A stretch of 64,000 nucleotides of DNA from Squalus acanthias. Its lineage: Eukaryota. The stretch covers positions 164,486,001 through 164,550,000 of the forward strand of contig CM059426.1 of the NCBI GenBank assembly GCA_030390025.1. Reading direction: 5' to 3'. This document shows, piece after piece, positions 1 to 63,252 of this stretch. Numbering within the stretch: the stretch's first letter is position 1; each line of letters starts with the position of its first letter. The notes beneath the pieces were generated by a model that saw nothing but the letters and a program-made list of their open reading frames with translations, did no database searches and was not told where the DNA came from. Made by a program: the position numbers and the translations under genes.

Positions 1-860
1 CACATGCCCCAGAATCCAGTCCCTGGGAATTGAACAGAGACTCAACCAAGTAGCAGAGCCCGAGAAAGCATAGTCACTCTGTACACATTATATGACTCCC
101 AAAATAGACCTATGACAGTTTGTGTGTTACTGATGGACAATATGCAGAAATGGGCTGGGAGGACAAGACTTAAACAGAAAGTCAGTGCATGTTTTGTGAA
201 TGACCCGTTTTGCTGACAGTCAAAAACATCTCACTGTAAAGGCAACCAAATTTTCTGATTGGACAAAAACTTTGCTCCCACACAGCCTTCTGTCCAGAAA
301 TCAGGGTCAGGTAAAAAAAAAGTTTCAGGACAGCCACCATACATCACATTTCCCTGTGTCTTATTAAATAGGTAAGTCCATACTTCGAGGTTCAACAGTT
401 TTAATTTTCAAATTCTCTAACTTACTCCCTACCTCGCCCCAACTCTTTCTGCTCCCCAGTTTCAAAAGGGAAAAGGCTATTGGTGAGCAATGGCACTGGA
501 GTACAGTTAATAATTCTATGCCAGCGGAGTACTGTATAGATTAGATTCCCTGTGCCTGCCATCAGCCGAGTGTGAGTCATGCCACTGCTCAACAGGGGTG
601 CATATCATGTCATGAAGAGTGATTTCTTTGAACAGATTTTTGCCATAAATTACATGGTTGAGGTGTTAATGGGAAGAAGTCTAAATTTAAGGCGATTATC
701 CACAACATATCTCTTCTCCATTGCATATCCTTTCCCTTTAAATGAAACAGCTGATTATTTTACCATTTAGGAGTCATTTCTAGTTGCCTTCTATCCGCAA
801 AGATAGTTCCAATAAGACTAAGTTATTCAAAAGTGGAAAACATCAGTGAACGTTACTTAC

Positions 861-10000: not shown

Positions 10001-13000
10001 CTCACAATTGAAGAATGGCATTTGGGGAGGTACTAGAGATAATCATGGACTGACTACTAGAGGTAATCATCTCTGCCTTCAGGAGAGAAGCAATGGTGAA
10101 AGACATCAAAGGGCTGAGGCAGATCAATAAAGCAGAGTTTATGCTCACTCTAGTTTAACTGTAACATGACCTCACATATGCATTGAGTACTTGATTGAAA
10201 AATTCTAAAACACAAAAGGCAATTTCCATAAATAATGACATCTGTGCCAAGGTGTTGCTCATTGCAGTGTCATCCAACGCCAAAGAGCGCAGGGAGGTGG
10301 ATTAGAGGCTCCAAACTGTCAAATTTCTATTTGCAGGCATGTGGGCTGATGATGTGTACCTCCTAGTGGCAGGCTAGAAATGACAGTGGTCCAGGTGCAC
10401 ATCACCGGGCCTGGTTGGGCCTGCAAAAGGATTAAAAAGTACTACATGTACTATAATTACAGGGCAACATCTTAAATATAAAAATTGAACTAAAAAAAAA
10501 TAATTCAGATTTCAATAAAGTATTTATTACAATTAATTAACTAACGAGAGAAATACCTCTTATAAAGTCCCAATTTAATTGTTAAGACCCAATTTTAAGA
10601 ATCAATTTCAATCTTCGCCCACTACCCCAACTAACAAGCACCATTACTGAATTGTAAAACACCATCTTCTCCAAGCTGTTACTTAGCTTCGGTCCAGTAA
10701 GATTTCATTTTTCAATTACATCAGTTGGGGAATAAGAAATACATAATGTGCTTAATTAATTTTAAGCGCATTTCTCGGCAGGATTAATACCTCATCATAT
10801 TTTGATGGTACACTGTATGTACCAAAAAAAATTCAAGTTCATTCCTCTGATTGAGATGTGCAAAAACAAATTAAGCACATTTCAGACCAAAAATCTTTTA
10901 CGTTAAAATAATTTTTGTTTTTGCTTCCCAACCTGGATCTTGGGCAATTTTTATTTTTGGATTTTTCCTTATGAATTTGGTTTTATCTTCCTTCTTTAAA
11001 AATTAAAGTTGCCTTTCTAATGTTATATATTAAATGTAGCCAACCTTGGCCTTTATCCTTATTAGGGGGCATTTTGTGTTTGTATTTGTGGAAACCATAA
11101 TGCAAACTACCGCCCCATCTCCAACCTCCCTTTCTTGTCCAAAGTCCTTGAACGTGTTGTCACCTCCCAAATTCGTGCCCGTCTTTCCCGCAACTCCTTG
11201 TCTGAATCCCTCCAATCACAAGTGCCAGGCAATGACGATCTCCAACAAGAGAGTCTAACCACTGCCCCTTGACAATCAACAGCATAACCATCACCAAATC
11301 CCCCATCAACATCCTGGGGGTCACCATTGACCAAAGCGTAACTGGACCAGCCACATAGATACTGTGGCTATGAGAGCAGGTCAGAGGCTGGGTATTCTGC
11401 GGCGAGTGTCTCACCACCTGACTCCCCAAAGCCTTTCCATCATCTACAAGGCACAAGTCAGGAGTGTGATGGAATACTCTCCACTTGCCTGGATGAGTAC
11501 AGCTCCAACAACAAGCAGCTCAACACCATCCAGGAAAAAGCAGCCCGCTTGATTGGCTCCCCATCCACCACCTTGAACATTCACTCCCTCCACCACCAGC
11601 GCACTGTGGCTGCAGTGCACACCATCTACAAGATGCACTGCAGCAACTCGCCAAGGCTTCTTCGGCAGCGCCTCCCAAACCCGACCTCTACCACCTAGAA
11701 GGACAAGGGCAGCAGGCGCATGGGAACACCACCACCTCCAAGTTCCCCTCAAGTCACACACCATCCTGACTGGGAAGCATACCGCCATTCCTTCATCACA
11801 GCTGGGTCAAAATCCTTGAACTCCTTCCTGAACAGCACTGTGGGAGTACCTTCACCACACGGACTGCAATGGTTCAAGGCGGTGGCTCACCACCACCCTC
11901 GAGGGCAATTAGGGATGACAATAAATGCTAGCCTTGCCAGCGACACCCAATTCCATGAACAAATAATTAAAAAAAAGGTTTCTGCCCCTGCCACAGCACT
12001 GAAACACCCCTCAGTCACAAATGACATCCTAGGTGACTGTAAACTATCCCTCCTCATCCTTCTTGGCCTATCTGCTGCCTTTGACATGGTTGACAGCACC
12101 ATTCTCCTCCAATGCCTCTCAGTCATCCAGCTGGGTGATACTGCACTCGCCTGGTTCCATTCTTATCTATCCAGTCATAGCCAGAGAATCACCTGCAATG
12201 GCGTCGCTTCTCTCTTCCGCACCGTTACCTTTAGAGTCCCCCCCTATTTTTCATCCATATGCTGCCCCTTGGCAACATCACCCGAAAACACAAATTTCCT
12301 CCAACTAAATATGTGAAGACCAAAGCCATTGTCTTCAGTCTCCGCCACAAACTCCCTGCTCCCTAGCCACCGATTCCATCCCTCTCCTTGGCAACTATCT
12401 GAGGCTGAACCAGACTGTTCGCAATAAGCTTCCGACCACATATCCTCTCCATCACCTAGAGGCCTGGACTAATAATCCAGAGACACGAGTTCAAATTCCA
12501 CCACTGAGGAATTGGAATTCAAATAATTAATTAAATCTGGACTAAAAAAAAAATAGTATCAGTAATGGTGACCATGAAACTACCGGATGGTCGTAAAAAC
12601 CCATCTGGTGCACTAATGTCTGTTAGGAAAGGAAATCTTCCATCCTTACCTGGTCTGGTCTGTTTGGGACTCCAGACCTAAAATGTGGTTGACTCTCAAC
12701 TGCCCTCTGCGGTTCAAGATTGCAGCTCACCACCAACTTCTCAAGGGCAATAAATGTCGGCCTTGCCAGTGACGCCCACATCCCATGAACGAATAAAAAA
12801 AAATCAAGGCCGCCTACTTCCACCTCCGTAACATTGCCAGACTCCGTCCCGCCTCAGCTCATCTGCTGCCGAAACCCTCATCCGTGACACGGTTACCTCT
12901 AGACTTGACTATTCCAATGCTCTCCTGGCCATCCTCTCATGTTCCACCCTAATTTGAGCTCATCCAGAACACTCCGTATCCTAACTTGCACCACATCCGT

Positions 13001-16000: not shown

Positions 16001-19000
16001 CTGTACTGAACAACTGACATCCACTCCAACAATCAATCACAGGAGTGAGGTTATTATGGGTCCTGTAAATAAGCATTGCAGCAGTTTTTTCTTTTTAAAA
16101 TATACGCAAATGCTCAGTGAACCACCTTGACTGAAAAAATAATTAGAATCAGCTAAAATTAACCTAGGAAAATAATTAAATTTACAGACATTCGTGAGCA
16201 CAAAAGTTTGGGCTAATTAGAGCCAGTCAACATTGATTTGTAAAGATATCATACTTGACTAACATAATTGAATTATTTGAAGAAAACCCCAAGTGCGATG
16301 GACAAAGGGAATGCAGTGGATGCGGTATATTTGGACAAAGTGCCACTTAAAGAGACCTGTTGTGAAGATTTAGGTTAGTATTAAAGGCAAAGTAGTAGCA
16401 TGGACAGAAAGCAGAGAGTAGGATAAATCTAACCCAGACAATTACTGATCCATCAGCCTCCTCCTAATTGTCAAAGTGATAGAAGGAGTCATCAATAATG
16501 CAATCAAGTGATACCTAATTACCAATAACCTGCTCACCGATGCTCAGTTCGGGTTCTGCCAGAACCACACTGCTCCAGACATGGACGCAAAAGCTGAATG
16601 CCAGAGGAGAATTGTTGCCCTCGACATTAAGGTCGCATTCAACCAATTATGGCACTAAGGAGCCCTAGCAAAACTAGTCAATGGAAATCAAAGGGAAAAC
16701 CCCTCTAGTGGGATAGGGCAGGAAAGTGGAGTTGAGGTCGAAGATTAGCCATGATCTTGTTGAATGGCAGAGCAGACTCGAGGGGCCGTATGGCATACTC
16801 CTGCTCCTCTCATCTTAGGTTCCTCTCCTCTGTTCTTAGGTTCTAGTGGCTGGAGGCATACCTGATGCCAAAGGAAGATGGTTGTGGTTGTCAAAGACCA
16901 GTCATTACAGCTTCAAAAAGTCACTGGAGGAGTTCTTCGGGGAAGGTTTATCAGCCGATCGATCTTCAGCTACTTTATCAATAACTTTCCTTCCGTAAGG
17001 TCAAGAGTGGAGGTGTTTGTGACGATTCCACAATGTTCAGCTCTATTCACATTTTCTCCAATAACCAAGCTGCCCATGCTAGCCTACAGCAGCACTGGAT
17101 AACATCCAGACTTTGTCTTACAAGTGGCAGCTAAAATTTGCATTACACAAGTGCCAGGCAATGACCATCTGGCGAGAGCAAGCCCAGTCATCACCCCTTG
17201 ACCATTAACAGCAGCACCATCGCCAAGTACCCCACCATCAACATCCTGGAGGCCACCGCTGATCAGAAGCAGAGTTGGACCAGCCATATCAACACCGTGG
17301 CTGCAACACCAGGGCAGAGATTGGGTACACTGACAAGTGGCTCACCTCTTGACCTCTCAAAGCCTCTCCATCATCTACAAGGCTCATCAGGAGTGTGATG
17401 GAATAATCGCCACTTACCTGGATGGGTGCAGCCGCAACAGCACTCAAGAAGCTCAACACCATTCAAAACAGAGCAGTTTGCTTTATTGGTACTCCTGCCA
17501 CTGGACTCAAGATCCACCCCCTGCACACTGTGGCTGCAGTATGCATGATCTACAGAATGCACTGCAGCAACTCATCAAGGTTACTTCAATACTCATGTTC
17601 AGTGAGCCACCCCCACCAAATAAATAACTAGAATCACCATTGGAGCACTTCCCTCCACTGTGATCTCTAAAACAGATAAGAACATGAGCAGCAATGTCAT
17701 GTGGAAATGATCACCTCCAACTCACGCCATCTTGAACCAAACAGATATTGCCATTTCTTCATCGTCACTGGGTCAATATCCTGGAACTCCCTATCTAACA
17801 ACATGGTCCTCCAACAAGGATTGCAGCGGTTCAATGAGAAGGCTCATCACCGCCTTCTCAGGGCAACTGAGAAGAGCAATAAATGCAGCACAAGAAATAT
17901 TGCTTGACTGCTGCAAAAGACAAGGATATCAGGGAAGAATGAATATAAATTAAAACTACTTTAAAAACTAGGGCTGCATTCAGTAGAGCACAGAAGGTTA
18001 AGGGGAATGTAATAGGTTCAAAGTTTTGAAAAGGTCTGAGGAATAATATGATCATTTCCATTTGGGCAACAACTTAGGATTATTTCCAAAAAATTGAAAG
18101 GGGAAGAAATTTTAAAAGGAAATACTTTCAGTTACTAGAATATGAAATGCACAACACTGGTAGCTATTGGAACAAGCAGAGCATTTAAGAAAAAAAATTA
18201 ACAGTTGAAGAGGAAATATATTAAAGGATATAGGGAAAATGAAGTTATAGATAACTCCAATATGGTGCTTGCCCTGGCATAGCATGATATGCCAAATGGC
18301 CACCTCTTATGGTGAAATCTGTATTATTCAACAATCCACTCTACGTGAACAAATTTATTAAGCCAACAAAAGAAAATGCATTCAACATGCAGAATCATAC
18401 AATTTTAAAAACTGTCAAGTGTTTCACAAATTCAGTGTCATTAGTAAGTGAAGCTCAGATCTAAGCAGTGCAATTGGCGAATATGAATTTGTTTCCTCCC
18501 CTGTCCCAAATACATACACAGAATATGTAACTTATACATTGGTTAGTCACACAAGCAATCAGTATACATTTGGAGATTATGCAAAACTGTGAAGCAGAGC
18601 ACGGTCATTTGGAAGCAAAAACTGAAAATCACATCCTATTATCAATCAATCAATCCACCAGCTAAAACTACTGCTGATTGCACAGCCTAGAAATACACAG
18701 GCAGAATTCATTAACAACGGAAAAGGATTACCCATTTTGTCAATCATTTCGAACATGCTCACAAATGAATCATATTCTTGGCAATGTCTTTTGTGCATGA
18801 AAAATGGGAGCGTGCTCACATCTGGCAACAGAATTTATTAAACCAAAGCAAGAATTTCAAAACCTTCTGCCTTTGTATTCTGCTTTGCATCATAACAAAA
18901 TGGGACAACGTGCTTTTGTGTGGTCCACACTGTGCTCAGCATTCCACACGAACCTGCAAAGAAAGAAGCGCTCCGGATGAGCTGGAGTGGGCCTGGGTCA

Positions 19001-25000: not shown

Positions 25001-28000
25001 AAAATAAATTAGGATTTTTTTTTTTTTTTTTTAAAGTTGGTAAAAATCCTATACTTCATTCAAAGTAGAGTCACAAGTAGTAGAACCTTACAGGTTTGAG
25101 CTTCCACCAGCACTGCCCATCCTGGCAGAGAAAACTTTGCTGATCATCAGCTGAGGGGGAGAGCTAGAGAGAAAAAAAAAGTGTACAATACTTCAGTCAC
25201 TGCAATAAGTCAATGGCTACATTAGTGGTCTGCTAGAAATTCACACCAAAAACAATCTTTGATGTTGAACTTAAAAAAACTTTACAACTCCATAATTTGT
25301 ATTTTACCCAAGAATCTCCAACAATCAATATATTAAGTCAAATCATCAGAAATGTTCACACTGATGTAACTGATGAACCTACCATCTCCATTAATTTGCA
25401 GTATTCTATCAAAATATGGTACTTCATTTCCAGCAAGCACTGTTTTATAACAGAGGGTATTTTCTATGGAATTGTAATTTCCCATGGAGAGCACAAAAAA
25501 TCTAGAATGTGACTACCACTCAAGTTAATTTAAAAACTATGCCCCAGAGTGTATCATAATGAACTGCAATGTGAACACAAGAGCATGAAGCGAAATTTAG
25601 TGAAATGGCCATTTTAATATCTCAAAAACTAAATGAATCTTAATTGACTGATTAAGCTGCTCCATTATTGTAAATGCAGCGCAACAGAATTCGGCAGCCT
25701 TTCAGATATATCTCTTACCGTATGTGATGTATTTTCAATGTAGAGCCTTTGTAACTCATTGCAACAGAGCCAAACATCATTTCTCCGAGCATGTTGACAT
25801 CAGAACCAGGCCGAGAATACTGCAAACAAGAGCCCCCATGGACAATACGGTACATCATTCATGCAGGTCAACAAATGTAGCAGAAACTGGTTTCCAGTAG
25901 TAATGTTTTTATACCTCATTAGTACAGGTGGAACCTATAACCCAGGAGTGAAGAACCCTGCTTTGGTGTTCAAATGGATTCCTGTTCACACTTGATTATA
26001 TTTACAGCCTGAATTAGAGGGCCAAATTTCAATAGGTGGCCATATCCTATGGAAAACTAGGCACTAAAATCAAGCTAAAACCATGTTCATTTATATTTCA
26101 GATAAAACAGATCAAATATAGAGCTTTTATTGGGTAGGGTGTGGGAAAGAAAGAAAAAGTCAAATCCATCCACAAGAACATCTTCAATCGAATCACATTT
26201 AAAATTATTTAAAAAAGGCATAATTATCATGCTGTATGGACAGCAACTTGACCCAATTAGTAATGCAAATAAATGTAAGCATTTACACATATTCATCATT
26301 TGTTTTTGATAGTGGATGTAACCAAGTCAGGTGTTGTTTGCTTAACGAGTGGTTATTCAAAAAGGAAATTAGAAACGTAAAAGCTCAACAAAAAAAACTG
26401 GCTAGTTAAAACAAGAATTTAATGAAAGGTAAATTGGGACAATTTAACTTTTGTACATTTAAGATTAAGAGTTGAAAAAAAATTGCTGTTCTTTTTCTCC
26501 CATTCCCAAAGGCAGCATTTCAAGTAAGTATTTGGGCATTGAAAGCCACACAAATACACTAATCTTTTTTTTAAAAAGGTGTTCTCAGGATGTGGGCGAT
26601 GCTGGCAAGGCCACATTTATTGCCCATCCCTAGTTGCACTGAGGCAGTGGTGGCGGCCTTCTCTTTGAACCACTGCAATCTTTATGGTCATGGTGCTCCC
26701 ACAATGGTGTTGTTAGGTAGGGAATTCCTTGAACCAGCAACAATGAAGGAACGATGGCGATGTGTCCACATGTGCAGTGTGGGGCATGGAGAGGGAATCC
26801 AGTGTAACTTACAATAAAAAGAATGAGTTATTGTAGATCACACCATTCTACGAGAACATTGCTGTAAACTGAGTTTACAGTTAATTTACATGAACATTTA
26901 AAGACCCAAATTAAAGTCACCTCATGGGCTCCAAAGTACAATGGTTATGGCACACCATAACAAGGCTTCTTCACTCCAGTAGGCAATGCTCCTCTACTTC
27001 AGTAAGCCACACCAAATATACTCCATTTGACAACGCAATATCCAGTCTTTAATTTCTACTCAATTTTATGGTCTGTCTACAATAGCAACACTTGCTACGC
27101 AGGTTTATCAGCTTACCTGATACCTTGGCAGTTGCTCCTTTGTGTTTGGAGCACTGGAAGAGGAGGAATTTTGGGTGCAGGTACCATTGCTACCTGTGTG
27201 GCAGCATTTTCCATGCAGTTTGGACAGGTCATCTGAAAATTTCTAGAAAACATGACAATCGTTCAGTTCAGGAATTTTCCTTTCATGCATTTTGTACTGT
27301 TGGTGTGTAATCCATAATTATTCTGATATACACTTCAGTATATTTAACCTTGAAACTTTATGGGAGGCAGAAGAAGGGAATCTTTTAAAAAAGGGAATAA
27401 GCATAGACACTAAGCTAAACTACAAAAAAAGCTTGAATTTTATGTCTGATCTTAATCCTTACAGAACTACAATTGCATTTCTGCGGCAAAATGGCATCAA
27501 TCACCACAACTATACATTTCATAACAAAACATGGAATGAGCGTCAACATTTCAGATGGGTTTGAACGTTTAAACAAAAAAACATTTCTAATCTAGGCCAC
27601 CAGTTTTCACCAACCATTGCAGTGCTCACTTAGGCATGTTGTGATCATCATTCTCCTCTCCGCACTACACTGTCACACTATGGCATGTGCTTCTTGATTT
27701 GAACATAATGTCCACTATTGTGCAGATTAGAGGCAACTTTACTTTGCACTTGGCTACACTAACTGGATCCAAGATATTTGATGCTGGCCAAAGTGGAAAT
27801 CTGTTCTCGTCTTCATTGTTAACATCCTCTTAAGAGCATACAAGTTCACCAAAAATCTCAAATACTACATTAGAAGTTATCCGAAATAGAAAACACAATG
27901 GTGGCGTGAAAGAAATTCCTCCTTGTAAAGAACAATGGTCTTCTAGTTTGCAGTGATGTGGTACAGTCCAAAATGATGTCCCTTCTACACACAGTGCACA

Positions 28001-34000: not shown

Positions 34001-37000
34001 CTGAAATCCCGCATACCTGGTATCATTCTAGTAAATATCTCTGCATCTTCTCCAGGGCTTTGACATCCTTGGTGCCCAGAGAATTAGATACAATACTCCA
34101 GCTGAGGCTTGACCAGTGATTTAAAACGGCTTAGCAAAATGCCTATGCTTTTGTACTCTATGCCTCTATTTATAACACTTCAGCAGCCAGGGGCATTCAG
34201 CCTCGGATCTGCGGGTAAGCGTTCTCCAAGGCGGCCTTCGAGATACACGACAGCGCAAAATCATAGAGCAGAAACTGATAGCCAAGTTCCGCACTCATGA
34301 GGATGGCCTCAATCGCGATATCGGGTTCATGTCACGATACAGAACGTGACTTGACATCATGGCCGGTCTTCCCAGGTGTTTTTTTTTTAAAAAGACTAAC
34401 ACAAGAACACAAATTGACAGGATATGCAGCCAGCAGGTGGTTTGACACGTTGGACCCCCTGGGACACATCTCATTGTCTTGGCTGTGCTCTTTGTTGTAG
34501 GAAAAATGTGAATAGATTTTGTCTGTGTTTAAATTGTGAATTCTGGGAGATTGTCTCATTGCTAACTTACCTGACGAAGGAGCGAACTGCTTCGAAAGCT
34601 TGTAAAATTAAATAAATCTGTTGGACTATAACCTGGTGTTGTGCGACTTCTCTATTTATAAAGGCCAGGATCCCATTTGCTTTTTTAACCACCTTATCAA
34701 CTAGACCTGCCACCTTCAAAGATTTGTGTATGTGAACTCTCAGGTCTCTGTTCCTGCACCCACTTTATTATAACATTTAGTTTATATTGCCTCTCCTCAT
34801 TCTTCCTTCCAAAATGCATCACTTCACACTTCTCTATCAGATTTCATTTTTTTTTAAAATTCGGTTATGGGATGTGGGCGTCGCTGGCAAGGCCAGCATT
34901 TATTGCCTATCCCAAATTGCCCTCGAGAAGGTGGTGGTGAGCCACCTACTTGAACCGCTGCAGTCCGTGTGGTGAAGGTACTCCCACAGTGCTGTTGGGG
35001 AGGGAGTTCCAGGATTTTGACCCAGATGTGATGAAGGAATGGCAATATGTTTCCCAGTCAGGATTGTGATGACTTGGAGGTGGTAGTGTTCCCATGTGCC
35101 TGCTGCCCTTGTCCTTCTAGGTGGAAGAGGTCGCTGGTTTGGGAGGTACTGCCGAAGAAGCCTTGGCGAGTTGCTGCAGTGCATCTTGTAGATGGTACAC
35201 ACTGCAGCCACGGTACGGTGGAGGGAGTGAATGTTTAAGGTGGTAGATGGGGTGCCAATCAAGCGGGCTGCTTTGTCATGGATGGTGTCGCGCTTCGAGT
35301 GTTGTTAGAGCTGCACTCATCCAGGCAAGTGGAGAGTATTCCATCACACTCCTTACTTGTGCCTTGTAGATGGTAGAAAGGCTTGAGGGGGGGGGGGGCG
35401 GTCAGGAGGGGAGAAACGTGCTGCAGAATACCTAGCTTCTGACCTGCTCTTGTTGCCACAGTATTTATGTGGCTGGTCCAGTTAAGTTTCTGGTCAATGG
35501 TGATCCCCACAATGTTGATGCTGGGGGATTCGGCGATGGTAATGCCATTGAGTGTCAAGGGGCAGTGGTTAGACTCTCACTTGTTGGAGATAGTCATTGC
35601 CTGGCACTTCTGTGGCGCAAATTTTACCTGCCACTTATCAGCCCAAGCCTGAGCGTCGTCCAGGTCTTGTTCCATGCGGGAATGGGCTGCTTCATTATCC
35701 GAGGAATTGTGAATGGCACTGAACAATGCAGTCATCAGCAAACATCCCCATTTCTGACCTTATGTTGGAGGAAGGTCATTGATGAAGCAGCTGAAGATGG
35801 TTGGGCTTAGGACACTGCCCTGAGGAACTCCTGCAGCGATGTCCTGGGGCTGTGATGATTGACCTTCAACCACCACAACTATCTTCCTTTGTGCTAGGTA
35901 TGACTCCAGCCAGTGGAGAGTTGTCCCCGATTCCCTTTGACTTCAGTTTTACTAGGGTTCTTTCATGCCACACTCGGTTAAATGCTGCCTTGATGTCAAG
36001 AGCAGTCACTCTCACCTCACCTCTGGAATTCAGCTCTTTTGTCCATGTTTGGACCAAGGCTGTAATGAGGTCGGGAGTCGAATGGTCTTGGCGGAACACA
36101 AACTAGGCATCAGCGAGCAGGTTATTGGTGAGTAAATGCCGCTCGATAGCACCTTACATCACTTTGCTGATGATTGAGAGTAGGCTGATGGGGCAGTAAT
36201 TGGCCGGATTGGATTTGTCCTCCTTTTTGTGGGCAGGACATACCTGGGCAGTTTTCCACATTGTCAGATAGATGCCAGTGTTGTAGCTGTACTGGAACAG
36301 CTTGGCTAGAGGCTCGGCTAGTTCTGGAGCACAAGTCTTCAGCATGATAGCCAGGGTGTTGTCGGGGCCCATAGCCTTTGCTGTATCCAGTGCGCTCAGC
36401 TGTTTCTTGATATCACGTGGAGTGAATCGAATTGGCTAAAGACTGGCCTCTGTGATGGTGGGGACCTCAGGAGGGAACTGATATGGATCATCCACTCGGC
36501 ACTTCTGGCTGGAGATGGTTGCAAACACTTCAGCTTATCTTTTGCACTCACGTGCTGGGCTCCACCATCATTGAGGATGGGGATATTCATGGTGCCTCCT
36601 CCTCCCGTTAGCTGTTTAATGGTCCACCACCATTCACGACTGGATGTGGCAGGACTGCAGAGCTTTGATCGGATCCATTGATTGTGGGCTCGCTTAGCCC
36701 TGTCTATAGCATGCTGCTTCTGCTTTTTAGCAAGCATGTAGTCCTGTGTTGCAACTTCCCCAAGTTGGCACCTCATTTTTAGGTACGCCTGGTGCTGCTC
36801 CTGGCATGCTCTTCTACACTCCTTAGTGATCCAGGGTTGGTCCCTTGGCTTGATGGTAATGGTAGAGAGAGGGATATGCCGGGTCATGAGGTTACAGATT
36901 GTGGTGGAATACAATTCTGCTGCCCACAGCACCTCATGGATGCCTAGTTTTGAGCTGCTAGATCGGTTCTGAATCTATCCCATTTACCACAGTGGTCGTG

Positions 37001-39430
37001 CCACACGATGGAGGGTGCCCTCAGTGAAGATGGGACTTCGTCTCCACAATGACTGTGCGGTGGTCACTGCTACCAATACTGTCATGGACAGATGCATCTG
37101 CGACAGGTAGATTGGTGAGGACGAGGTCAAGTAGGTTTTTCCCTCGTGTTGGTTCTCTCGCCACCTGTCACAGGCCAAGACTGACGGCTATGTCCTTCAG
37201 GTCTCGGCCAGCTCAGTCAGTAGTGGTGCTACCGAGCCACTCTTGGTGATGAACATTGAAGTCCCCCCACCCAGAGTGCTTCTTCCAAGTGGTGTTCAAC
37301 ATGGAGGAGTACTGATTCATCAGCTGTAATCAGCAGGAGGTTTCCTTGCCCATGAGACTTCATGGGGTCCAGAGTCAATGTTGATGACTCCCAGGGCCAC
37401 TCATTCCCGACTGTATACCACTGTGCCGCCACCCCTGGTGGGTCTGGGACAGGACATACCTAGGGATGGTGATGGAGGAGTTTGGGACATTGGCTGAAAG
37501 GTATGATTCTGTGCTTGACTAGTCTGTGGGACAGCTCTCCCAATTTTGGCACAAGTCCCCAGATGTTGGTGAGGAGGACTTTGCAGGGTTGACTGGGCTG
37601 GGTGTGCCATTGCCGTGTCCATAGCCAGTGCCAAGGTCGATGCCAGGTGGTCCGTCCTGTTTCATTCTTATTATTCTGTTTCATAGTGGTTTGTTACAAC
37701 TGAATGGCTTGCTCGGCCATTTCAGAGGGCAGTTAAGAGTCAACCACATTGCTCTGGGTCTGGACCAGGTAAGGACGGCAGATTTCCTTCCCTAAAAGGA
37801 TATTAGTGACATTAGATAGGTTTTTACGACAATCCGATAGTTTAATGGTTACCATTACCGATTATTTAATTAACTGAATTTAAATTCCCGAGCTGCCATG
37901 GTGGGATTTGAACTCATGTCCCTGGATCATTAGTCCAGGCCCCTGGATTATGAGCCCAGTGACATTACCACTACGTTACCGTCCCCTATATCTGCCATAT
38001 GTCAGCCTATTTCACCAGTCTGCATACGTCCCCCTCAAGTCAGCTACTATCTTCCTCACTGTTTACAACGTTTCCAAGTTTTGTGTCATCTGCAAACTTT
38101 AAAATTATGCCCTTTTGTACCATATAGGGCGAGGATGAGGTAGATTTTCAATGTTATAAAATAGGCATTCTACAAGATCGGGATTTCTTTTTGGATGCGT
38201 TTGCTGACAACGAAACTGGACCAGGCGAATTTCTCGAGCATGCGTAGTTCCAGTCTTCTAAACCACGTATGTGTCCTGTGATTTTCGAAGTTAAAAAAAA
38301 CGTAAGCAGCATAAAGATGGCAGTGGTGCAAAGCACCAGTAACTTTAATGTAGAATAGGCTGCGAATTGGCAGAGAGGGCAGCAACGGCAGAGAATGGCC
38401 AAAAGTTGATTGGGAGCCACCCCACCCTCGTCCCTGGAGGCTGGTATTGGTATTGATGATCAGAGGTGACCTGGACCCAGAGTGAGCAACCCCCTCCCGG
38501 AGTGGCTTAAATGGAGATGCATAGCAATGTGGTGATAACAGGTAGGACTTTTTAAAAAGTTTTTTTGTAAAGCATTTTCAGATGCAAAGCGCTCTGACCT
38601 GTTAGAAATTAAATAAGCCACTAAAGAGGTTTTACCAACTGTCAATATAGCTATAATGATTTATGTTTGGAAAAAAATAGTAACTCATGGTTTCTATACC
38701 AAATCTCTTGATTTTTAAGAATTTGTCTTGATATGAGACAGTGGGGTTGGCATTACTGTTTATGTTTCAAAACTGTTGGTCGAGGATATCAATACTAGTT
38801 ACATCAGACTATTTTCTACAGTATATATCCAAGTATAAACATAGAAATTAAAGTGGCGGGGAGAGAAACTGAATGTCTTCTATGGGAATCATTTTGATGG
38901 GTGGCAAGCTACAGTAACGCAGGGGGGAGAATAGGTCTTCTATGTGCGAAAGAGATTTTTTGGAGGGGTTTGGCTGGAACGTTTGGGTGCGAAGGGGAGA
39001 AAAAGAACTCCTTAAACTTGGGTTACACACAGTACTTTCTGGGCCAGAGAAATGGCACAAACTGAAGAAAAGGTTCTATAACATTCCCAGTGGACTATTC
39101 TCAAACTCCAACTACAGCAGGCATTCGACAGACCATGCTGCTGATACCCTTCTTCATCTTGGTAATACAAGTTGGACAGGTTATACTATACCCATCATTT
39201 CAGTTACAAAGAGCATCGCCCACCCAAAAATGTTTTTGTAGTAGATGCTCAACATTTTAAAAAATCCAACAGTCCCAAGAAATCTCCAAACAGCAGCAGT
39301 TACCTGTACTGTGGCACCTTCGACTTTACGCACTGCTTTAGAATCAAACAGCACATGTCTGCCTCTCCTTTCACAATCCTGGTAAACAATCAGTCGAATC
39401 TGGTTAACTTCAAACTCCACAGGCGTCCAG
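861..39430 (-). CDS. FNIP2: FNIP2 partial gene model: 12 coding exons, join(39304-39430,27117-27242,25719-25819,25092-25163,19145-19245,18954-19043,8294-8365,7694-7829,6397-6598,5682-5770,1972-2118,861-1030); first exon and 3' exons outside the window
   Basis: The spliced exons give one open frame of FNIP-family protein ([56 protein letters not shown]). Paralog-diagnostic segments recall FNIP2 rather than FNIP1: [59 protein letters not shown]. All introns are GT-AG. Confidence 0.93.
1110..1560 (+). mobile_element. Degenerate CR1 LINE 3' fragment
   Basis: Decayed match to the 3' ends of the better-preserved CR1 copies (e.g. ggccaaatggcctactcctgtt tail). Confidence 0.7.
1972..2118 (-). CDS. 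FNIP2: FNIP2 exon 12 (147 nt): [49 protein letters not shown]
   Basis: Acceptor tttgcag, donor GTATGT. Confidence 0.95.
3425..3690 (+). mobile_element. Ancient SINE copy, AmnSINE2-like
   Basis: Motifs cacagaccaggaag, aattgggctcagtgcccttggattagg and gccacttg recur in several dispersed copies; family name from recalled consensus. Confidence 0.6.
3990..4315 (-). mobile_element. Ancient SINE copy, AmnSINE2-like
   Basis: Reverse-complement match to the same family. Confidence 0.55.
4425..5115 (+). mobile_element. Fragmented CR1 3' region, interrupted by an inverted local duplication (about 4577-4737) and an opposite-strand LINE tail (about 4831-4960)
   Basis: CR1 ORF2 C-terminal and 3' UTR motifs (agattcactaaaatgatacc, ttcaaaattatgag, ttatttccactg). 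Confidence 0.6.
4577..5474. repeat. Inverted repeat with arms of about 160 bp (4577-4737 and 5308-5474) and a spacer of about 570 bp
   Basis: aatcttggcatccactggagtctag...ctgaaccaggggctgagatg is the reverse complement of catctcagcccctggttcag...ctagactccagtggatgccaagatt. Confidence 0.93.
5612..5634 (+). repeat. Poly-G run (poly-C in the FNIP2 pre-mRNA), about 50 nt past the exon 11 donor
   Basis: Homopolymer seen directly. Confidence 0.9.
5682..5770 (-). CDS. FNIP2: FNIP2 exon 11 (89 nt): [30 protein letters not shown]
   Basis: Acceptor tttggtag, donor GTGAGA; FNIP2-type sequence. Confidence 0.94.
6397..6598 (-). CDS. FNIP2: FNIP2 exon 10 (202 nt): [13 protein letters not shown]...[13 protein letters not shown]...[22 protein letters not shown]
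   Basis: Acceptor ttacaag, donor GTACCA; matches ORF 6295..6576. Confidence 0.96.
6769..7266 (-). mobile_element. L2-clade LINE 3' fragment
   Basis: GPKLWNSLP peptide and aaaggtgctatataaatgcaagttg tail, shared with 48965-50025. Confidence 0.88.
7694..7829 (-). CDS. FNIP2: FNIP2 exon 9 (136 nt): [46 protein letters not shown]
   Basis: Acceptor cttgcag, donor GTAAGT. Confidence 0.96.
8294..8365 (-). CDS. FNIP2: FNIP2 exon 8 (72 nt): [24 protein letters not shown]
   Basis: Acceptor cttacag, donor GTATAT. Confidence 0.94.
8426..8880 (+). mobile_element. tRNA-derived SINE with Deu-type core and L2-like tail (SacSINE1/DeuSINE-like), near full length
   Basis: A box gctcagttgg, B box ggttcaagtcc, core gtggatgtaaaagatcccatggcact, tail aaggcgctatataaatgcaagtc. 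Confidence 0.85.
9331..9876 (-). mobile_element. L2-clade LINE 3' fragment
   Basis: ORF 9584..9949 reads TSRLDYSN...QNSAARVLT...LHWLPV. Confidence 0.9.
9880..10095 (+). mobile_element. AmnSINE2-like 3' fragment
   Basis: gaagaatggcatttggggaggtac...gccttcaggagag. Confidence 0.5.
11219..11977 (+). mobile_element. 5'-truncated copy of the tRNA-headed CR1-group LINE family
   Basis: [18 protein letters not shown] peptide; tail caataaatgctagccttgccagcgacaccca followed by an A-rich end. Confidence 0.88.
12456..12804 (+). mobile_element. SINE-like bipartite element (tRNA-like head plus LINE 3' tail)
   Basis: B box gagttcaaattcc; body matches 37700-37950; tail matches 11870-11977. Confidence 0.85.
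15396..15976 (-). mobile_element. RTE-clade LINE 3' fragment
   Basis: [25 protein letters not shown] and C-terminal [21 protein letters not shown]; possible TSD aaacctt (15389-15395 / 15977-15983). Confidence 0.9.
16430..17890 (+). mobile_element. Older decayed copy of the tRNA-headed CR1-group LINE family (RT to 3' end), with a CR1 tail inserted at about 16705-16830
   Basis: Collinear with the reverse complement of 34850-36220. Confidence 0.8.
18954..19043 (-). CDS. FNIP2: FNIP2 exon 7, probable cassette exon (90 nt): [29 protein letters not shown]
   Basis: Acceptor ccattag, weak donor GTTCGT; phase 1-1; [13 protein letters not shown] matches the corresponding FNIP exon. Confidence 0.85.
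19145..19245 (-). CDS. FNIP2: FNIP2 exon 6 (101 nt): [34 protein letters not shown]
   Basis: Acceptor ttttgcag, donor GTAAGG; [10 protein letters not shown] motif. Confidence 0.93.
21066..21147 (+). pseudogene. tRNA-Ser(GCT) pseudogene
   Basis: 82 nt GACAAGATGACAGAGTGGTTAAGGCGATGGGCTGCTAATCCATC...GGGTTTGAATCCCATCCTTGTCA, collinear with vertebrate tRNA-Ser-GCT; T-loop TTC changed to TTT, acceptor-stem mismatch, CpG-type decay. Confidence 0.88.
21160..21425 (+). mobile_element. DeuSINE-like SINE, 3'-truncated
   Basis: Homologous to 8426-8880 (ggttcaagtcccactccag, gtactgaggg, ctggccaatatttatcc). Confidence 0.85.
21690..23432 (+). mobile_element. CR1 LINE ORF2 RT/3' fragment
   Basis: [41 protein letters not shown]; attctatg-type tail. 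Confidence 0.93.
23965..24890 (-). mobile_element. CR1 LINE internal RT fragment
   Basis: [24 protein letters not shown]. Confidence 0.88.
25092..25163 (-). CDS. FNIP2: FNIP2 exon 5 (72 nt): [24 protein letters not shown]
   Basis: Polypyrimidine tract plus ctctag acceptor, donor GTAAGG. Confidence 0.94.
25719..25819 (-). CDS. FNIP2: FNIP2 exon 4 (101 nt): [34 protein letters not shown]
   Basis: Acceptor tttgcag, donor GTAAGA; highly conserved FNIP motif. Confidence 0.96.
26575..26760 (-). mobile_element. 3' tail of the tRNA-headed CR1-group LINE family
   Basis: ggatgtgggcgatgctggcaaggccacatttattgccc matches 34868-34930. Confidence 0.8.
27117..27242 (-). CDS. FNIP2: FNIP2 exon 3 (126 nt): [42 protein letters not shown]
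   Basis: Acceptor ttttctag, donor GTAAGC; KCC...KEQLPxYQ motif; phase 0-0. Confidence 0.9.
28720..29760 (-). mobile_element. CR1 LINE 3' fragment
   Basis: [32 protein letters not shown]. Confidence 0.9.
29913..30604 (-). mobile_element. RTE-clade LINE 3' fragment (second copy)
   Basis: [21 protein letters not shown]...HQRCLRKIL; closely similar to 15396-15976. Confidence 0.92.
30770..31680 (+). mobile_element. Decayed CR1 RT/3' fragment
   Basis: [14 protein letters not shown]...DVVYLDFQK. Confidence 0.85.
32590..33545 (-). mobile_element. Tigger/pogo-type DNA transposon remnant with CENP-B-like transposase N-terminus
   Basis: Minus-strand peptides [11 protein letters not shown]...[15 protein letters not shown] (HTH-like), [21 protein letters not shown], broken by stops and frameshifts; ends approximate. 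Confidence 0.7.
34176..34649 (+). mobile_element. Penelope-like element 3' fragment (end of GIY-YIG domain plus terminal repeat)
   Basis: Translates [48 protein letters not shown]; 12-bp TSD ctctatttataa at 34164-34175 and 34650-34661. Confidence 0.88.
34567..34605 (+). ncRNA. Minimal type I hammerhead ribozyme motif (Penelope-associated)
   Basis: TTAC-CTGACGA-A-[GGAGCG aac TGCTTC]-GAAA-GCTT-GTAA. Confidence 0.75.
34847..37986 (-). mobile_element. Apparently full-length CR1-group LINE with tRNA-like 5' head and a single decayed APE-RT ORF
   Basis: Head with A box (37968-37978) and B box (37904-37915); APE start [10 protein letters not shown]; RT motifs [13 protein letters not shown] and [12 protein letters not shown]; A-rich 3' end. 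Confidence 0.85.
39304..39430 (-). CDS. FNIP2: FNIP2 exon 2 (127 nt): [42 protein letters not shown]
   Basis: Acceptor cattacag, donor GTAACT; FNIP N-terminal motif. Confidence 0.95.
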
Positions 39431-47169: not shown

Positions 47170-47375
47170 CCTCCTTGATTTTAAAATTCTCATCCTTGTT
47201 TTCAAATCCCTCCATGGCCTCACCCCGCCAATCCTCCTCGATCTCTGCGCTCCTCCAATTCTGGCCTCCTGTGCATTCCCGATTTTCATCTCTCTACCAT
47301 TGGGGGCCGTGCCTTCAGCTCTGGAATGCCCTCCGCTGTCAAATTTTGTTTGATAACACTACTGTAAAGTGCCAT
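47170..47375 (+). mobile_element. L2 3' fragment with deletions
   Basis: ttttaaaattctcatccttgttttcaaatccctccatggcct shared with other L2 copies. Confidence 0.82.
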
Positions 47376-47870: not shown

Positions 47871-48964
47871 TTTTAAAAAAATAAAATAAAATCACTATAA
47901 AAAATTGAAGGATTATAAACAGGACATACAAAACCCACAATTACAATTTGCATAAATGTTTTCCTATTACACAAAAACAAAGTGAATGAAGCTTTTGCAG
48001 TATTCCTAACCAAGCACTTCATTAGTTAAACCAGTGTCAAGTAGCTGTTGCGTCACGAGTTAATAGCTAATCACAGCATCACATGGTGCTGTGTGGCTCC
48101 TCTAGACAAGCTTATGACTCGCCCTGCAAGGTTGTTCAAACATTGGCTACAATAGCCTCTAACTGCGGTCATGTGAGTAGCTGTCATCTGACAGCTCTTA
48201 GCAACCTTGCTGATCTCAGCAGGACACACAGAATACAAATATATGAAACTTGGTTAAAAAAAAAATCTACAGTACAACAGCAAACATGAAACTGCTGAAA
48301 CAGGTTATAGGCTCAAAAGAGTAACCCTTTTAAAATCAAACACTGTACAAAAAACCCACACGGGTTCCAGCAAGGAGCACGAGATAAAAATGCTTTGTGT
48401 TCTCCAAGTAGCACTGAGGCATGTGTCGGGTCTCTGCATTTGGCAACAGATTCTGACCACTCCCACTGTACACAACTTGAATTTCACATTCCAGATCTTA
48501 AGGGGAAATTAGAATGAGCAGCATGGTCTACACAACAAAAGCGAAAATTTACAAAACCCTACTTGTGACACTCTTCTTGCCATAAGCCGCTGCAACAATT
48601 AAAGCTAGTGTTGGATTTTTTTTTTAAATAAATGATATGGTGCTGAACTGCTCAAAACAAAATACACACTTTTTAACCATTTGCACTAAATGTAGTTCCT
48701 GCAAAAATGAGCTGGGAGATTCATCCTGCACCACTCCACTAATTATACCTCCCACCAGTCAATATGGAAAGAGTTGCATTTAAATAGCACCTCACCACAT
48801 CTGGTAGCATTTCACTCTATGAATTGCTTGGAAATGAAGGGACTTAATTCTGCAAACTCTGGAGCCATTTCCACACAGCAAGATGCCAAAACAATGAGAT
48901 ACATGACCAGCTAAACTTTGAGGAAGGAATGCTGGCCAAGACCACCGAGATGACAACAGCAACT

Positions 48965-50025
48965 ACTTTTATTTATATAGCGCCTTTAACGTTGTAAAAC
49001 GTCCCAATGCGCTTCACAGGAGTATTACAAGGCAAAGAATTTGACACTGAGCCATACATGGATAAATTAGGGCAGGTGACCAAAAGCTTGGTCAAAGAGG
49101 TAGGTTTTAAGGAGCGTCTTAAAAGGAGGAAAGAGAGGTGGAGGGGTTTAGGCAGGGAATTCCAGAGCTTAGGGCCTAGGCAACAGGAGGCACAGCCACC
49201 AATGGTTGAGTGATTATAATCAGGGATGTTCAATAGGGCAGAATTAGAGGAGTGCAGATATCTCAGGGGGTTGTGGGGCTGGAGGAGATTAGAGAGATAG
49301 GGAGGGGCGAGGCCATGGAGGGATTTGTAAACAAGGATGAAAATTTTGAAATTATGGGGTTGCTTAACCGGGAGCCAATGTAGGTCAGCGAGCACAGGGG
49401 TGATGGGTGAAGGGGACCTGGTATGAGTTAGGACACAGGCAGCCGAGTTTTGGATCACCTCAAGTTTACGTAGGGTAGAACGTGGGAGGCCAGCCAGGAA
49501 TGCGTTGGAATAGTCAAGTCTAGATGTAACAAAGGCATGGATGAGGGTTTCAGCAGCGGATGAGCTGAGGCAGGGGCGGAAACAGGCGATGTTATGGAGG
49601 TGGAAATAGGCGGTCTTAGTTATGCTGTGGCTATGCGGTCGGAAGCTCATTTCAGGGTCAAATATGGCACCAAGGTTGCGAACAGTGTGGTTCAGCCTCA
49701 GACAAATGTTAGGGAGAGGGATGGAGTCAGTGGCTAGGGAACGGAGGTTGTGGCAGGGACCGAAAACAATGCCATCGGTCTTCCCAATAGTTAACTGGAG
49801 AAAATTTCTGCTCATCCAGAACTGGATGTCAAACAAGCAGTCTGACAATTTAGAGACCGTGGAGGGGTCGAGAGAAGTGGTGGTGAGGTAGAGCTGGGTG
49901 TAGTCAGCGTACACGTGGAAACGGATGATGTTTTCGGATGATGTCGTCAAGGGGCAACATGTAGTTGAGAAATAGGAGGGGGCCAAGGATAGATCCTTGG
50001 GGGACACCAGAGGTAACGATGCCCA
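48965..50025 (-). mobile_element. L2-clade LINE 3' 1 kb (end of RT)
   Basis: ORF 48973..50007 [11 protein letters not shown]...[11 protein letters not shown]...LHWLPV. Confidence 0.93.
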
Positions 50026-50104: not shown

Positions 50105-50600
50105 AGCAACTGCAACTTGCATTTATACAGCATCCTTAATGTAGCAAAACATCAAAAGGTGCCTCACAGGAATGCTATCAAAATTTCAGCACCAAGCTGC
50201 AAAGAGATATTAGGACAGATGAGCAATAGCTTGGTCATAGGTGTTAGTTTTAAAGAGTAACTTAAGGGGGAGGGGGAGGGGGGGGAAGGAGGAGAGGATT
50301 CCAGAGTTTAGGACCTAGACAGCTGAAGGCACGGCCACCAGTGGCAGAGCGATGGAAATCGGAGTTGCGCAAGAGGGCAGAATTGGAGGAGCGCAGTGAT
50401 CTTGGAGGGTTGTAGCGCTGGGGGAGGTTGCAGAGGTAGGGAGGGGTAAGGCCATGGAGGGATTTGAAAACAAGGATGAGAATTTTAAAAATCAAGGCGT
50501 TGCTTAACTGGGAGGCAATGTAGGTCAGCAAGCACAGGGGTGATGGGTGAATGGGACTTGGTGCGAGTTAGGACACGGGCAGCCGAGTTTTGGATGAGCA
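50105..50600 (-). mobile_element. L2 3' fragment
   Basis: [19 protein letters not shown]...GPKLWN. Confidence 0.88.
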
Positions 50601-53869: not shown

Positions 53870-54135
53870 TCACATGGCTCAGTGGTAGCACACTCATCTC
53901 AGAAGGTCGTGGGTTCAAGTCGCACTCGAGACTTGAGCACATAATTTCGGCTAACACTTGCAGTACTAAATGCTGCATTGCCGGAAGTGCCATCTTTCAA
54001 ATGTTATTAAACTAGCCTCTCAGGTGGACGTATGGCACTATTCGAAGAGCAGGGTAGTTCTTCCCAGTGTTCTGGCTAACATTTATCCCTCAAACATCAC
54101 TAAAACAGATTACCATTTCATTGCCGTTTGGGGGG
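53870..54135 (+). mobile_element. DeuSINE-like SINE, decayed
   Basis: tggctcagtggtagca...ggttcaagtc...tggcactattcgaagagcaggg. Confidence 0.82.
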
Positions 54136-56113: not shown

Positions 56114-57141
56114 GAGATCACTCCACAATGTACCACCTCTGGCAATGCAAAGCTACAGTGAAAGACATTTCTGTGGCATATCCCGATTGCTACGTGAAAG
56201 TAGAGATCCTTGAAACAGTTGCCTATTTGAGACACACAACCCTACATGACTGAATATTTTGAAATTCTCAATTTTTGCTCCCAGTTTTTAAAATAAAAAG
56301 GATTGAACTCTGCCATCTTCTTGGAGACTACAAAATACCATTTCATAGAAATAGGGTGGGGCGTCAATGGGACATGAATCTCTCAAGGGGGGCTCAGCAA
56401 ATAAAGTTTAGGAACCTCTGGTCTAGACCATACCCTTCTCACATGCCCATCATTCCAGTTCCAAAGCATGTGATGTGATGTGATCTAATCCAAGCACACA
56501 GCTAAATAAAGCAGCTATGTTACCAGGCATATCTTTTGCTTCTTTGCAATGCACACTATTGAGAATTGAGGACAATTACCATCTACCACGCAAAGCCTAG
56601 TGACTTTATAGCTTTTCAAGTGGGGAATACAAAGTTAAATATTTTAAAATTAGCCACAATATTCATAGACACTTTATAATAGATTGAAAAATATACCTAG
56701 ATTGGATTTATACTTGAAGCTCAAAGAAATAATCATCAGGAATTTGAATTTCCTATTAGAAAGCAAAGCTGAATTCCTTCTGAAACAAAATGGGAACAGT
56801 AGAGTAGCCAGTTTAAAAAGGTCTTCTGGTAATCAGCTACATTCCTGCCTTTTCCCTTTGAGTAGTCTTTATTACATGGTGTAATTAATCCTGTAGCCAA
56901 AAAACCCTCTTATTCATGTGAGAATCAATTTAGGGCTCAAAAAACAAAGCAATATTCAAAATTCCCAGGACGGATTATGCCGCCATAGAATTTCCCCATT
57001 CTAGAAAAAAAAACTGTCTTGGATGTTCTCAAACATTCACAATCAGAGCAATGAACTACATTTTATGACATGAACATGTATTTTTTTCTGGCTGGAACAG
57101 GAAGAGTAGGAGGAGGAAGGGAAATATAGCAATGCTATCAT

Positions 57142-57548
57142 TTTTTTAATTCATTCACGGGATGTGGGCGTCGTCGACAAGGCCAGCATTTATTGCCCAT
57201 CCCTAATTGCCCTCAAGAAGCTGCCTTCTTGAATACACAGAGTGGCTTGCGAGGCCATTTCAGAGGACAGTTAAGAGTCAACCACATTGCTGTGGGTCTA
57301 GAGTCAGATATAGGCCAGACCAGGTAAGGACGGCAGATTTCCTTCCCTAAAAGGACATTAGATGGGTTTTTACGACAATCCGGTAGTCACCATTGCTGAT
57401 ACTAGCTTTTTAATTCCAGATTTATTTAATTAACTGAATTTAAATTAGCCAGCTACCGTGGTGGGATTTGAACTCACGTCTCCGGATCATTAGTCCAGGC
57501 CTCTGGATTACTAGTCCAGTAACATAACCACTATGCTACCATACCCAC
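57142..57548 (-). mobile_element. SINE-like bipartite element, full length (tRNA-like head plus LINE 3' tail)
   Basis: 57240-57548 matches LINE 5' end 37700-37986; 57142-57220 matches LINE tail 34850-34930. Confidence 0.88.
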
Positions 57549-62735: not shown

Positions 62736-62879
62736 TAAAACTGGAAGAATTCCCCCCACCCCGCACAAAATCTGATCTTCAATATCAGATTCTGTAGATT
62801 GAAAGGGAAACAGTTTGGACAAATACCCCTCAAAGGTGCCTTTTCATATTAAAAAAAGTACAATTAATTTAACCTTTAG

Positions 62880-63252
62880 GACTTCAGCTCACGATCTAGA
62901 TCAACAGTCCAGTGTCGTTGTACTGAGGGCTTTCTGCATTGTCAGAGGCAACCCACTTTGGATGAGAGGTTAACCCGAGACCCCATCTTCCTGTTCAGGT
63001 GGACATTAGAGATTCCATGACATTTCTCAAAAGAGCAGGGAGTTCTCCCAATGTCTTAGCCAATATTCTTCCCTCAGCCAACACCATAATAAAAAAGATT
63101 GACTGGGCATTCAATCAAATGTTTGGGAGCTCATGCGCTGTGCAAACTAACTCGCAATTTCCTGCATAAGTGACTGTACTTCAGAAAGTAACTTGTGTGA
63201 AGCACTTACGATATTTCTCTGATACAAAGCACTATAAATACCAGTCTTTCTT
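62880..63252 (+). mobile_element. DeuSINE-like SINE, decayed and 5'-truncated
   Basis: gtactgaggg...caggtggacattagagattccatgaca...gcactataaata. Confidence 0.78.

Follow-up and report, generated by a model that had tools for sequence, protein, structure and literature searches.

Coding LINEs are usually Pol II elements and non-coding SINEs are made by Pol III, the heads of the latter being joined to LINE fragments at a later step. [quoted passage not shown] On the LINE side, the accessible portions of the relevant papers describe single-ORF elements of the CR1 group (PMC6740152, PMC4120745), including single-ORF subgroups within CR1 and L2 (PMC4120745), and label CR1-Zenon-like repeats in the whale shark (bioRxiv 10.1101/443036). 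A search of the full-text literature, outside of which most subscription papers fall, turned up no description of a tRNA-headed shark LINE, though its sequence may well stand in a repeat catalogue, and no occurrence of four short motifs of the family described here.

Within the 64,000-nt stretch of Squalus acanthias DNA analysed here (the window), the minus strand of 37986–34847 reads, in order, tRNA-like head, leader, APE-RT frame and A9 tail (Table 1), with the A-rich 3′ end that a preliminary description had noted. The A9 tail, the presence of truncated copies at 11217 and 16417 and the absence of LTRs are hallmarks of a LINE. As also claimed earlier, the whole lies as a single block inside a host CR1, which resumes collinearly past both ends and whose flanks form one collinear piece when aligned with three further CR1 fragments in the window. 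The insertion edges show AT on both sides (a duplication of 0–2 bp), with three extra bases ahead of the head. A stem-loop predicted at 34914–34868 in the 3′ tail has a z of −2.13 in the element versus +0.90 and +0.33 in two other copies, and so beats shuffles in one of the three copies.

Table 1. Features of the tRNA-headed LINE, its surroundings and related copies in the window.
Feature	Position	Strand	Remarks
Whole element: decayed LINE of near full length, single APE-RT ORF, tRNA-derived 5′ end	34847..37986	−	
tRNA-derived head	37899..37986	−	from sequence; sister copy at 57546 recognised as tRNA
Leader body common to 0.4-kb elements	37699..37898	−	only internal TTTT (37797–37794); ATG at 37720 in endonuclease frame
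LINE-only linker, shared leader to endonuclease	37583..37698	−	multi-copy in four runs; contains ATG 37684
APE endonuclease region, broken	37012..37582	−	GDFN 37266; SDH 37068
Reverse transcriptase region, broken	35436..36345	−	FADD 35742
3′ tail, common to short elements and truncated copies	34847..34958	−	A9 at 34855–34847
Host CR1, upstream part	37990..38113	−	
Host CR1, downstream part, collinear with upstream part	34651..34846	−	
Short element, head and leader (77%) joined to last ~90 nt of the LINE (85%)	57141..57546	−	
Short element, 5′-clipped, leader (73%) joined to LINE tail (74%)	12450..12803	+	other breakpoint
5′-truncated copy of the same LINE, 85%	11217..11976	+	
Older, more distant 5′-truncated relative, 65–68%	16417..17886	+	
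3′-end fragment of related copy, 77%	26565..26728	−	

The organisation of an APE-type LINE, with APE followed by RT in one frame, is recognisable from RVT_1 matches on three of the ten frame pieces and from motif order (the motifs of Table 1 preceded by KVLLTNIWG at 37582, and with QGS at 35822 between SDH and FADD), the motifs shifting frame and the frame being broken here. Since 13 stops fall within the 879 codons of the homology-defined frames, and stops and frame changes break the ORF, this copy is dead. We found no intact shark ORF of the family, shark gene models covering pieces only, and intact ORFs of 962–983 aa were seen in distant relatives only; the closest named proteins come from Heptranchias, Heterodontus, Rhincodon and Mustelus (73–80% for three of them), and the last 5′ protein searches gave one match each. 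The idea of an autonomous LINE/SINE hybrid is supported in that head and LINE form one unit; its autonomy at present is conjectural. Because the endonuclease lies only ~400 nt in from the 5′ end, and no stop-free frame in that interval exceeds 77 aa, the element is without ORF1 and departs from the canonical two-ORF design of CR1; the remark that it leaves no room for ORF1 was correct.

The head begins at 37986 (GGGGACGG...); the window's other complete head has the same first base, 8 nt ahead of the A box. In the long element the A box (37978–37968) has two mismatches to the consensus, and the B box (37915–37904) is intact in all three in-window copies; its 17-mer occurs three times in the window against 0.03 expected. 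Neither ARAGORN nor Rfam calls a tRNA at 37986. For the sister head of 57546–57141, 77% identical, ARAGORN reports tRNA-Thr AGT, and the match to Rfam RF00005 scores 26.1 bits (E=0.003), short of the gathering score of 29. The variable loop of the sister carries 22 extra nt that, by eye, repeat the anticodon arm; the long element also holds an anticodon-arm-like segment twice (37959–37943 and 37938–37922). With boxes located here and the sister recognised as tRNA, albeit below the Rfam gathering score, the tRNA-like head with A and B boxes, as first described, is of the kind that marks SINE2. Folding of the heads is no better than that of shuffled sequence (z 0.08 and −0.12), an RNAalifold model of three copies has 37 pairs without a compensatory change, and Rfam matches in the leader to structured RNAs or ribozymes amounted to none except tRNA.

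As to the identity of the leader, the Deu domain of SacSINE1 was considered and rejected: SacSINE1 and Deu motifs, taken from the supplement of Kojima 2018, match four other loci of the window (8469/8567, 21213/21309, 53913 and 62961), which have a different tail, and have no match in 37699–37986. The CORE and UCON3 motifs, one short motif each from supplements, had no window match at three mismatches, a single motif being able to miss diverged domains.

Head and leader recur in the window in two short elements. At 3,140 bp and with an APE-RT, the long element lies outside the SINE2 range of 100–700 bp of non-coding sequence, into which only the 0.4-kb elements at 57141 and 12450 fall. Both align wholly to element positions 1–292 plus the last 85–112 nt, as is proper to a SIDE, their leader breakpoints differing (about 292 and 264). 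Moreover, the element at 57546 keeps an in-frame ATG, its MASQATL matching the MAEQAIQL of the long element in the endonuclease frame. The simplest reading is that the 0.4-kb elements are likely internal deletions of the long LINE, the direction being taken from these two in-window copies; it is possible instead that the LINE captured a whole SINE body rather than the SINE arising by deletion from the LINE.

That head and leader also occur as free short elements at two other sites of the window would suit an accident, in which template switching or recombination fused a SINE head with a truncated LINE here and nowhere else. Contigs from four runs, each of a different organism (X1, X8, X13 and X15, of the 24 runs available; X15 is an RNA run by guess only), were mapped on 36900–38200. 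Unique flank depth was 8–21, and summed depth over the linker bins 37604–37691 was 18,152–317,751 in X1, X8 and X13, to be taken as an order of magnitude only; the linker/flank ratios of ~11,600 (X1), ~13,000 (X8) and ~1,700 (X13) are not copy numbers. Among the 32 pieces listed, with 177,301 more, seven bridged the junction from at least 37734 to at most 37557 (two in X1, three in X13, two in X8), each with 29–46 differences and gaps, taken together, over 178–246 letters, and 16–20% different from this copy. As these pieces are diverged, while the X1 flank has no listed differences, the X1 bridging contigs come from other loci. A whale-shark gene model (P0165) likewise carries the translated leader followed by the start of the endonuclease, which speaks to order only, as the model may be spliced. 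With the junction bridged in three organisms, and the linker at 10^3–10^4 times flank depth, it is not confined to this locus, and a one-off chimera is hardly credible.

The bridging contigs reach the leader body rather than the tRNA head, and none of the listed pieces spans head to ORF. What ties head to ORF is the evidence of the in-window copies, of contig joints and of depth: in each of the four runs the outermost 5′ head bin goes with the linker bin (0.81, 0.87, 0.41, 0.71), and the shared leader bin is 1.8–52 times deeper, as expected if short elements contribute to leader depth. In X15, one contig of depth 480 connects 37669 with 37819. Site-specific LINEs exist, and a LINE that repeatedly entered one site within a SINE would also yield the same junction at many loci; yet past the A tail lies host CR1 and not the remainder of a SINE, and this SINE does not enclose either truncated copy (11217, 16417), which makes such target-specific insertion very improbable. 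Head, leader and a single APE-RT frame are very probably, then, the architecture of a family with many copies in several species. Beyond these runs, shark-specific DNA patterns had no match in metagenome or viral contigs, and a protein scan of viral contigs confirmed none of 39 candidates.

The same contigs bear on the start codon. The preliminary description had placed the start of the ORF at the ATG at 37684, which is real in this copy, but most of the depth of the mapped contigs has ACG there (37683 A>G, + strand), with G at 62,133 of 90,108 in X1, 108,597 of 147,068 in X8, 3,559 of 7,128 in X13 and 1,577 of 1,661 in X15, that is, at 50–95% of depth over the four runs. Because ACG makes up most of the contig depth, ATG 37684 is probably not the start codon of the family and is specific to this copy. 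The best remaining candidate would be ATG 37720, in the endonuclease frame and with G at −3 and +4, from which one stop at 37696 intervenes here.

Placement of the RT in a tree, as had been proposed, was possible from relatives gathered by a profile-free search (310 relatives) and a metagenome-contig scan, from which the best 80 of 507 confirmed loci were taken, plus one from genome contigs. A FastTree of 94 RT rows (the element, 81 loci and 12 proteins; seven window stretches with fewer than 200 columns were dropped) groups the element with P0016, P0081, P0141, P0028 (Branchiostoma), P0076 (Sycon) and the loci L001, L002, L004 and L005 at SH 0.994, in a clade left unnamed because the tree holds no named reference RT. 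Identity to these relatives is 38–44%, and the host CR1 is 33–49% identical to the element over short pieces. The full-length relatives P0016 and P0081, on contigs of 3.6–4.0 kb, carry Exo_endo_phos_2 and RVT_1, and the best PDB matches of their profile are to L1 ORF2p; P0028 falls in generic RT clusters of the ESM Atlas.

The relatives also suggest an order of events. In L001 and L002 a single ORF is preceded by 567 and 949 nt, in which no ORF reaches 150 aa, and an ORF1 of 350–480 aa is present in many more distant loci. Comparison of the three heads with the 81 loci (blastn, nhmmer) gave no match below E=0.06, many contigs possibly missing the true 5′ end, and ARAGORN on 41 of the 81 found a single tRNA, which in L016 lies 2 kb upstream on the antisense strand. 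Since relatives of the same clade look single-ORF but headless, ORF1 was likely already absent when the head arrived; and since none of the 81 loci matches it, the head looks like a gain of the shark lineage. The contrast first drawn between an ORF1-less element and a CR1 group that often encodes ORF1 is thus right about the element but weak as a contrast, single-ORF CR1-group elements being known and the relatives here also being without an upstream ORF.

What the head does is a separate question from its presence. We consider the locus a dead copy of a shark LINE family in which the tRNA-derived head may have served as an internal Pol III promoter for the whole element, a judgement close to balanced but leaning slightly the other way; granted the family architecture, the Pol III step itself stands at about an even chance. 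The proposed cycle would run as follows. An ORF1-less CR1-group LINE would have gained the head via 5′ switching; transcription by Pol III would begin with the first base of the head and extend over ~3.2 kb poor in T; ribosomes would translate the capless RNA from within the leader, the in-frame ATG 37720 being the foremost candidate for a start; and the protein product would recognise the predicted 3′ stem-loop and make a copy of the RNA via target-primed reverse transcription. The promoter would in consequence be carried along in every full-length copy, and the 0.4-kb head-plus-tail elements would arise by internal deletion and be mobilised in trans. In its entirety, such an autonomous coding LINE, made full length by Pol III from a captured tRNA promoter, translated cap-free and giving rise to a SINE by internal deletion, is put forward tentatively, as possible rather than probable.

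A long Pol III transcript would have to avoid T-runs, and the sense strand holds one TTTT in 3,120 nt (37797–37794) versus 13 on the antisense strand. The window's CR1 fragments count 18 over 3,173 nt, its LINE fragments other than the element about 4.6–9 sense TTTT per kb compared with 0.3 in the element, and the headless clade relatives L001, L002, L004 and L005 have 4.8–13 per kb; L080, from another RT branch and with its 5′ end beyond its contig, is likewise poor in T-runs (0.65 per kb). Shuffling gave a less striking picture, with 4.6 TTTT expected from mononucleotide shuffles (p=0.051), 2.3 from dinucleotide shuffles (p=0.31) and 1.2, versus 0 found, from synonymous shuffles (p=0.26). 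TTT:TTC stands at 2:12 versus 71:113 for other NNY pairs (p=0.05), and the pooled in-window copies have two TTTT versus 8.5 expected (p=0.007), these copies being homologous and not independent. The T-run check suggested at the outset, applied to a single copy, accordingly finds few runs but not fewer than composition allows: the scarcity is within what base composition permits, and the strand is compatible with Pol III read-through. The sole TTTT sits 190 nt into the leader, is common to 57546 and is present in two of the three in-window copies; it could stop Pol III.

That T-run and the composition argument both suit another reading, in which Pol II makes the full-length coding RNA, from a promoter in the leader or by read-through from the host, and the head, captured as a 5′ UTR, promotes transcription of the short elements at most. 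In the portions seen of PMC5786205 and PMC10886601 LINEs are described as Pol II elements, a preprint seen in part reports 5′ switching to be common among LINEs (bioRxiv 10.1101/2022.11.04.512097), and a cap is normally required for translation, Pol III RNAs being without m7G cap and as a rule non-coding according to the available text of PMC2666806. On the other hand, the 5′ end of the element is the tRNA +1 in both complete copies, the B box is kept throughout, and the T-run density given above is far from that of the other LINE fragments of the window. We hold transcription by Pol II to be a real possibility, if somewhat doubtful. For Pol III as the polymerase, a result from cell assays is of interest: Pol III-made Alu needs only ORF2p, and Pol II-made Alu also ORF1p (Kroutter 2009, PMC2666806, as far as its available text goes), a finding in keeping with a Pol III element that has no ORF1.

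A divided cycle could also square the cap problem with the precise tRNA-like 5′ end and the strand's poverty in T, Pol III making a 3.2-kb template RNA and protein being supplied in trans from capped transcripts of other copies, so that the headed copies would spread as very long SINEs do; the short elements show that the LINE tail can be moved in trans. Among the 24 loose ends listed, with 4,283 more, we saw no headless full-length shark partner at the leader–linker boundary, however, and a near-full-length frame is hard to explain without translation in cis, which leaves this division improbable. Transcription of the translated RNA itself by Pol III, as tentatively proposed above, has the wider consequences. 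If true of an autonomous LINE, it would erase the boundary between LINE and SINE within one element, and a conserved SINE body would gain a visible LINE origin. A CR1-group LINE with a whole SINE head and body marks out a direct path by which a LINE becomes a SINE, or a SINE the promoter of a LINE, and the question of whether Pol III makes a translated retrotransposon RNA of 3 kb is now testable. Shark repeat annotation will break such copies up, reporting a LINE next to a SINE or a spurious tRNA gene.

Among described systems, the closest pair of a LINE and its deletion product is Zenon/Persaeus (PMC6740152), where, by the parts of the paper available, a single-ORF CR1-group LINE is accompanied by an element that has retained its 5′ UTR and 3′ end together with the start of the ORF; unlike the shark short elements, Persaeus is described there as having no tRNA homology or Pol III promoter, and Zenon was compared by description only. 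Bov-tA, AfroSINE and SINE2-1_ACar/Vingi-2_ACar (PMC5786205, in the sections available) resemble the shark short elements in joining a tRNA head to LINE 5′ and 3′ parts, but there the head was added after the deletion and the LINE is headless, whereas here the LINE bears the head. Within sharks, SacSINE1 (a Deu-SINE), with an L2-2_CM- or CR1-4_DR-like partner, has in common a tRNA head and a tail from a LINE of the CR1/L2 group (PMC5499810, PMC3747384, each in part), but its head and Deu motifs do not match the head of the element, which is not a SacSINE1/DeuSINE. The HE1 SINE and HER1 LINE of sharks and rays are likewise a tRNA SINE and a CR1-type partner, described in the accessible text as having 3′ tails in common and compared with the shark element by that description only (PMC3747384). 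Cassandra, Helenus and Ajax, the TRIMp3 elements, are retroelements with a Pol III promoter from a small-RNA gene, but are, in the available parts of PMC10886601, short LTR elements that do not code and are no longer than 1.3 kb, unlike the shark LINE. RTE-1_DAn is itself a LINE with tRNA-like sequence; it belongs to the RTE clade by name, and the sections of the paper available to us set its matches aside and do not give the position or function of the tRNA-like part. The shark head, by comparison, is the exact 5′ end of a CR1-group element, and short elements have both that head and the LINE tail in common with it.

Both ARAGORN tRNA calls in the whole window (2/2) overlap or adjoin SINE-type repeats, and the tRNA-Thr call is probably a false tRNA gene. 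Four Deu-SINE copies of SacSINE1-like type, with a tail that differs from that of the tRNA-headed LINE, are present in the window, as are at least six fragments of another LINE-like repeat family. The CR1 that hosts the LINE is also broken at another point by ~470 bp of other sequence (34175-34650), resuming at 34175.

Repeats and tRNA calls in the window, and 5'-UTR motif sites in two relatives of the LINE
Feature	Position	Strand	Remark
SacSINE1-like Deu-SINE copy 1	8426-8900	+	
SacSINE1-like Deu-SINE copy 2	21171-21421	+	
SacSINE1-like Deu-SINE copy 3	53877-54112	+	
SacSINE1-like Deu-SINE copy 4	62879-63111	+	
tRNA-Thr call	57454-57545	-	ARAGORN; coincides with the head of the short element (tRNA-derived head and leader joined to the LINE's end)
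tRNA-Ser call	21066-21147	+	ARAGORN; immediately ahead of the SacSINE1-like copy starting at 21171
Other LINE-like family, fragments	6768-7267; 9328-9875; 12806-13379; 47173-47320; 48958-49617; 50105-50595		
GGGCGGATGAGACC...CAACGGCCATCAT motif	L001:160-230; L002:100-190 and 390-490		

Translated pieces of the LINE occur inside shark gene models of unrelated genes (P0002, P0003, P0020, P0164 and P0057; aldo-keto reductase, storkhead box, anoctamin-7 and an RGM-domain protein), and are likely annotation artefacts or exonised copies. Among the genome contigs, an APE-RT element of eukaryotic type (L081) lies in a bacterial MAG, its presence there probably reflecting host contamination.

The ORFs of three sister-clade proteins, P0043, P0110 and P0148, open with D(I/V)ExNPGP-type sequences, which resemble 2A recoding peptides. 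The 5' UTRs of L001 and L002, headless single-ORF relatives in the LINE's RT clade, share a GGGCGGATGAGACC...CAACGGCCATCAT motif, present twice in L002, that may represent a ribozyme or else a 5' module acquired from elsewhere; by eye, the start of L002 resembles the RTE 5'-UTR domain given in the supplement of Kojima 2018 (PMC5786205).
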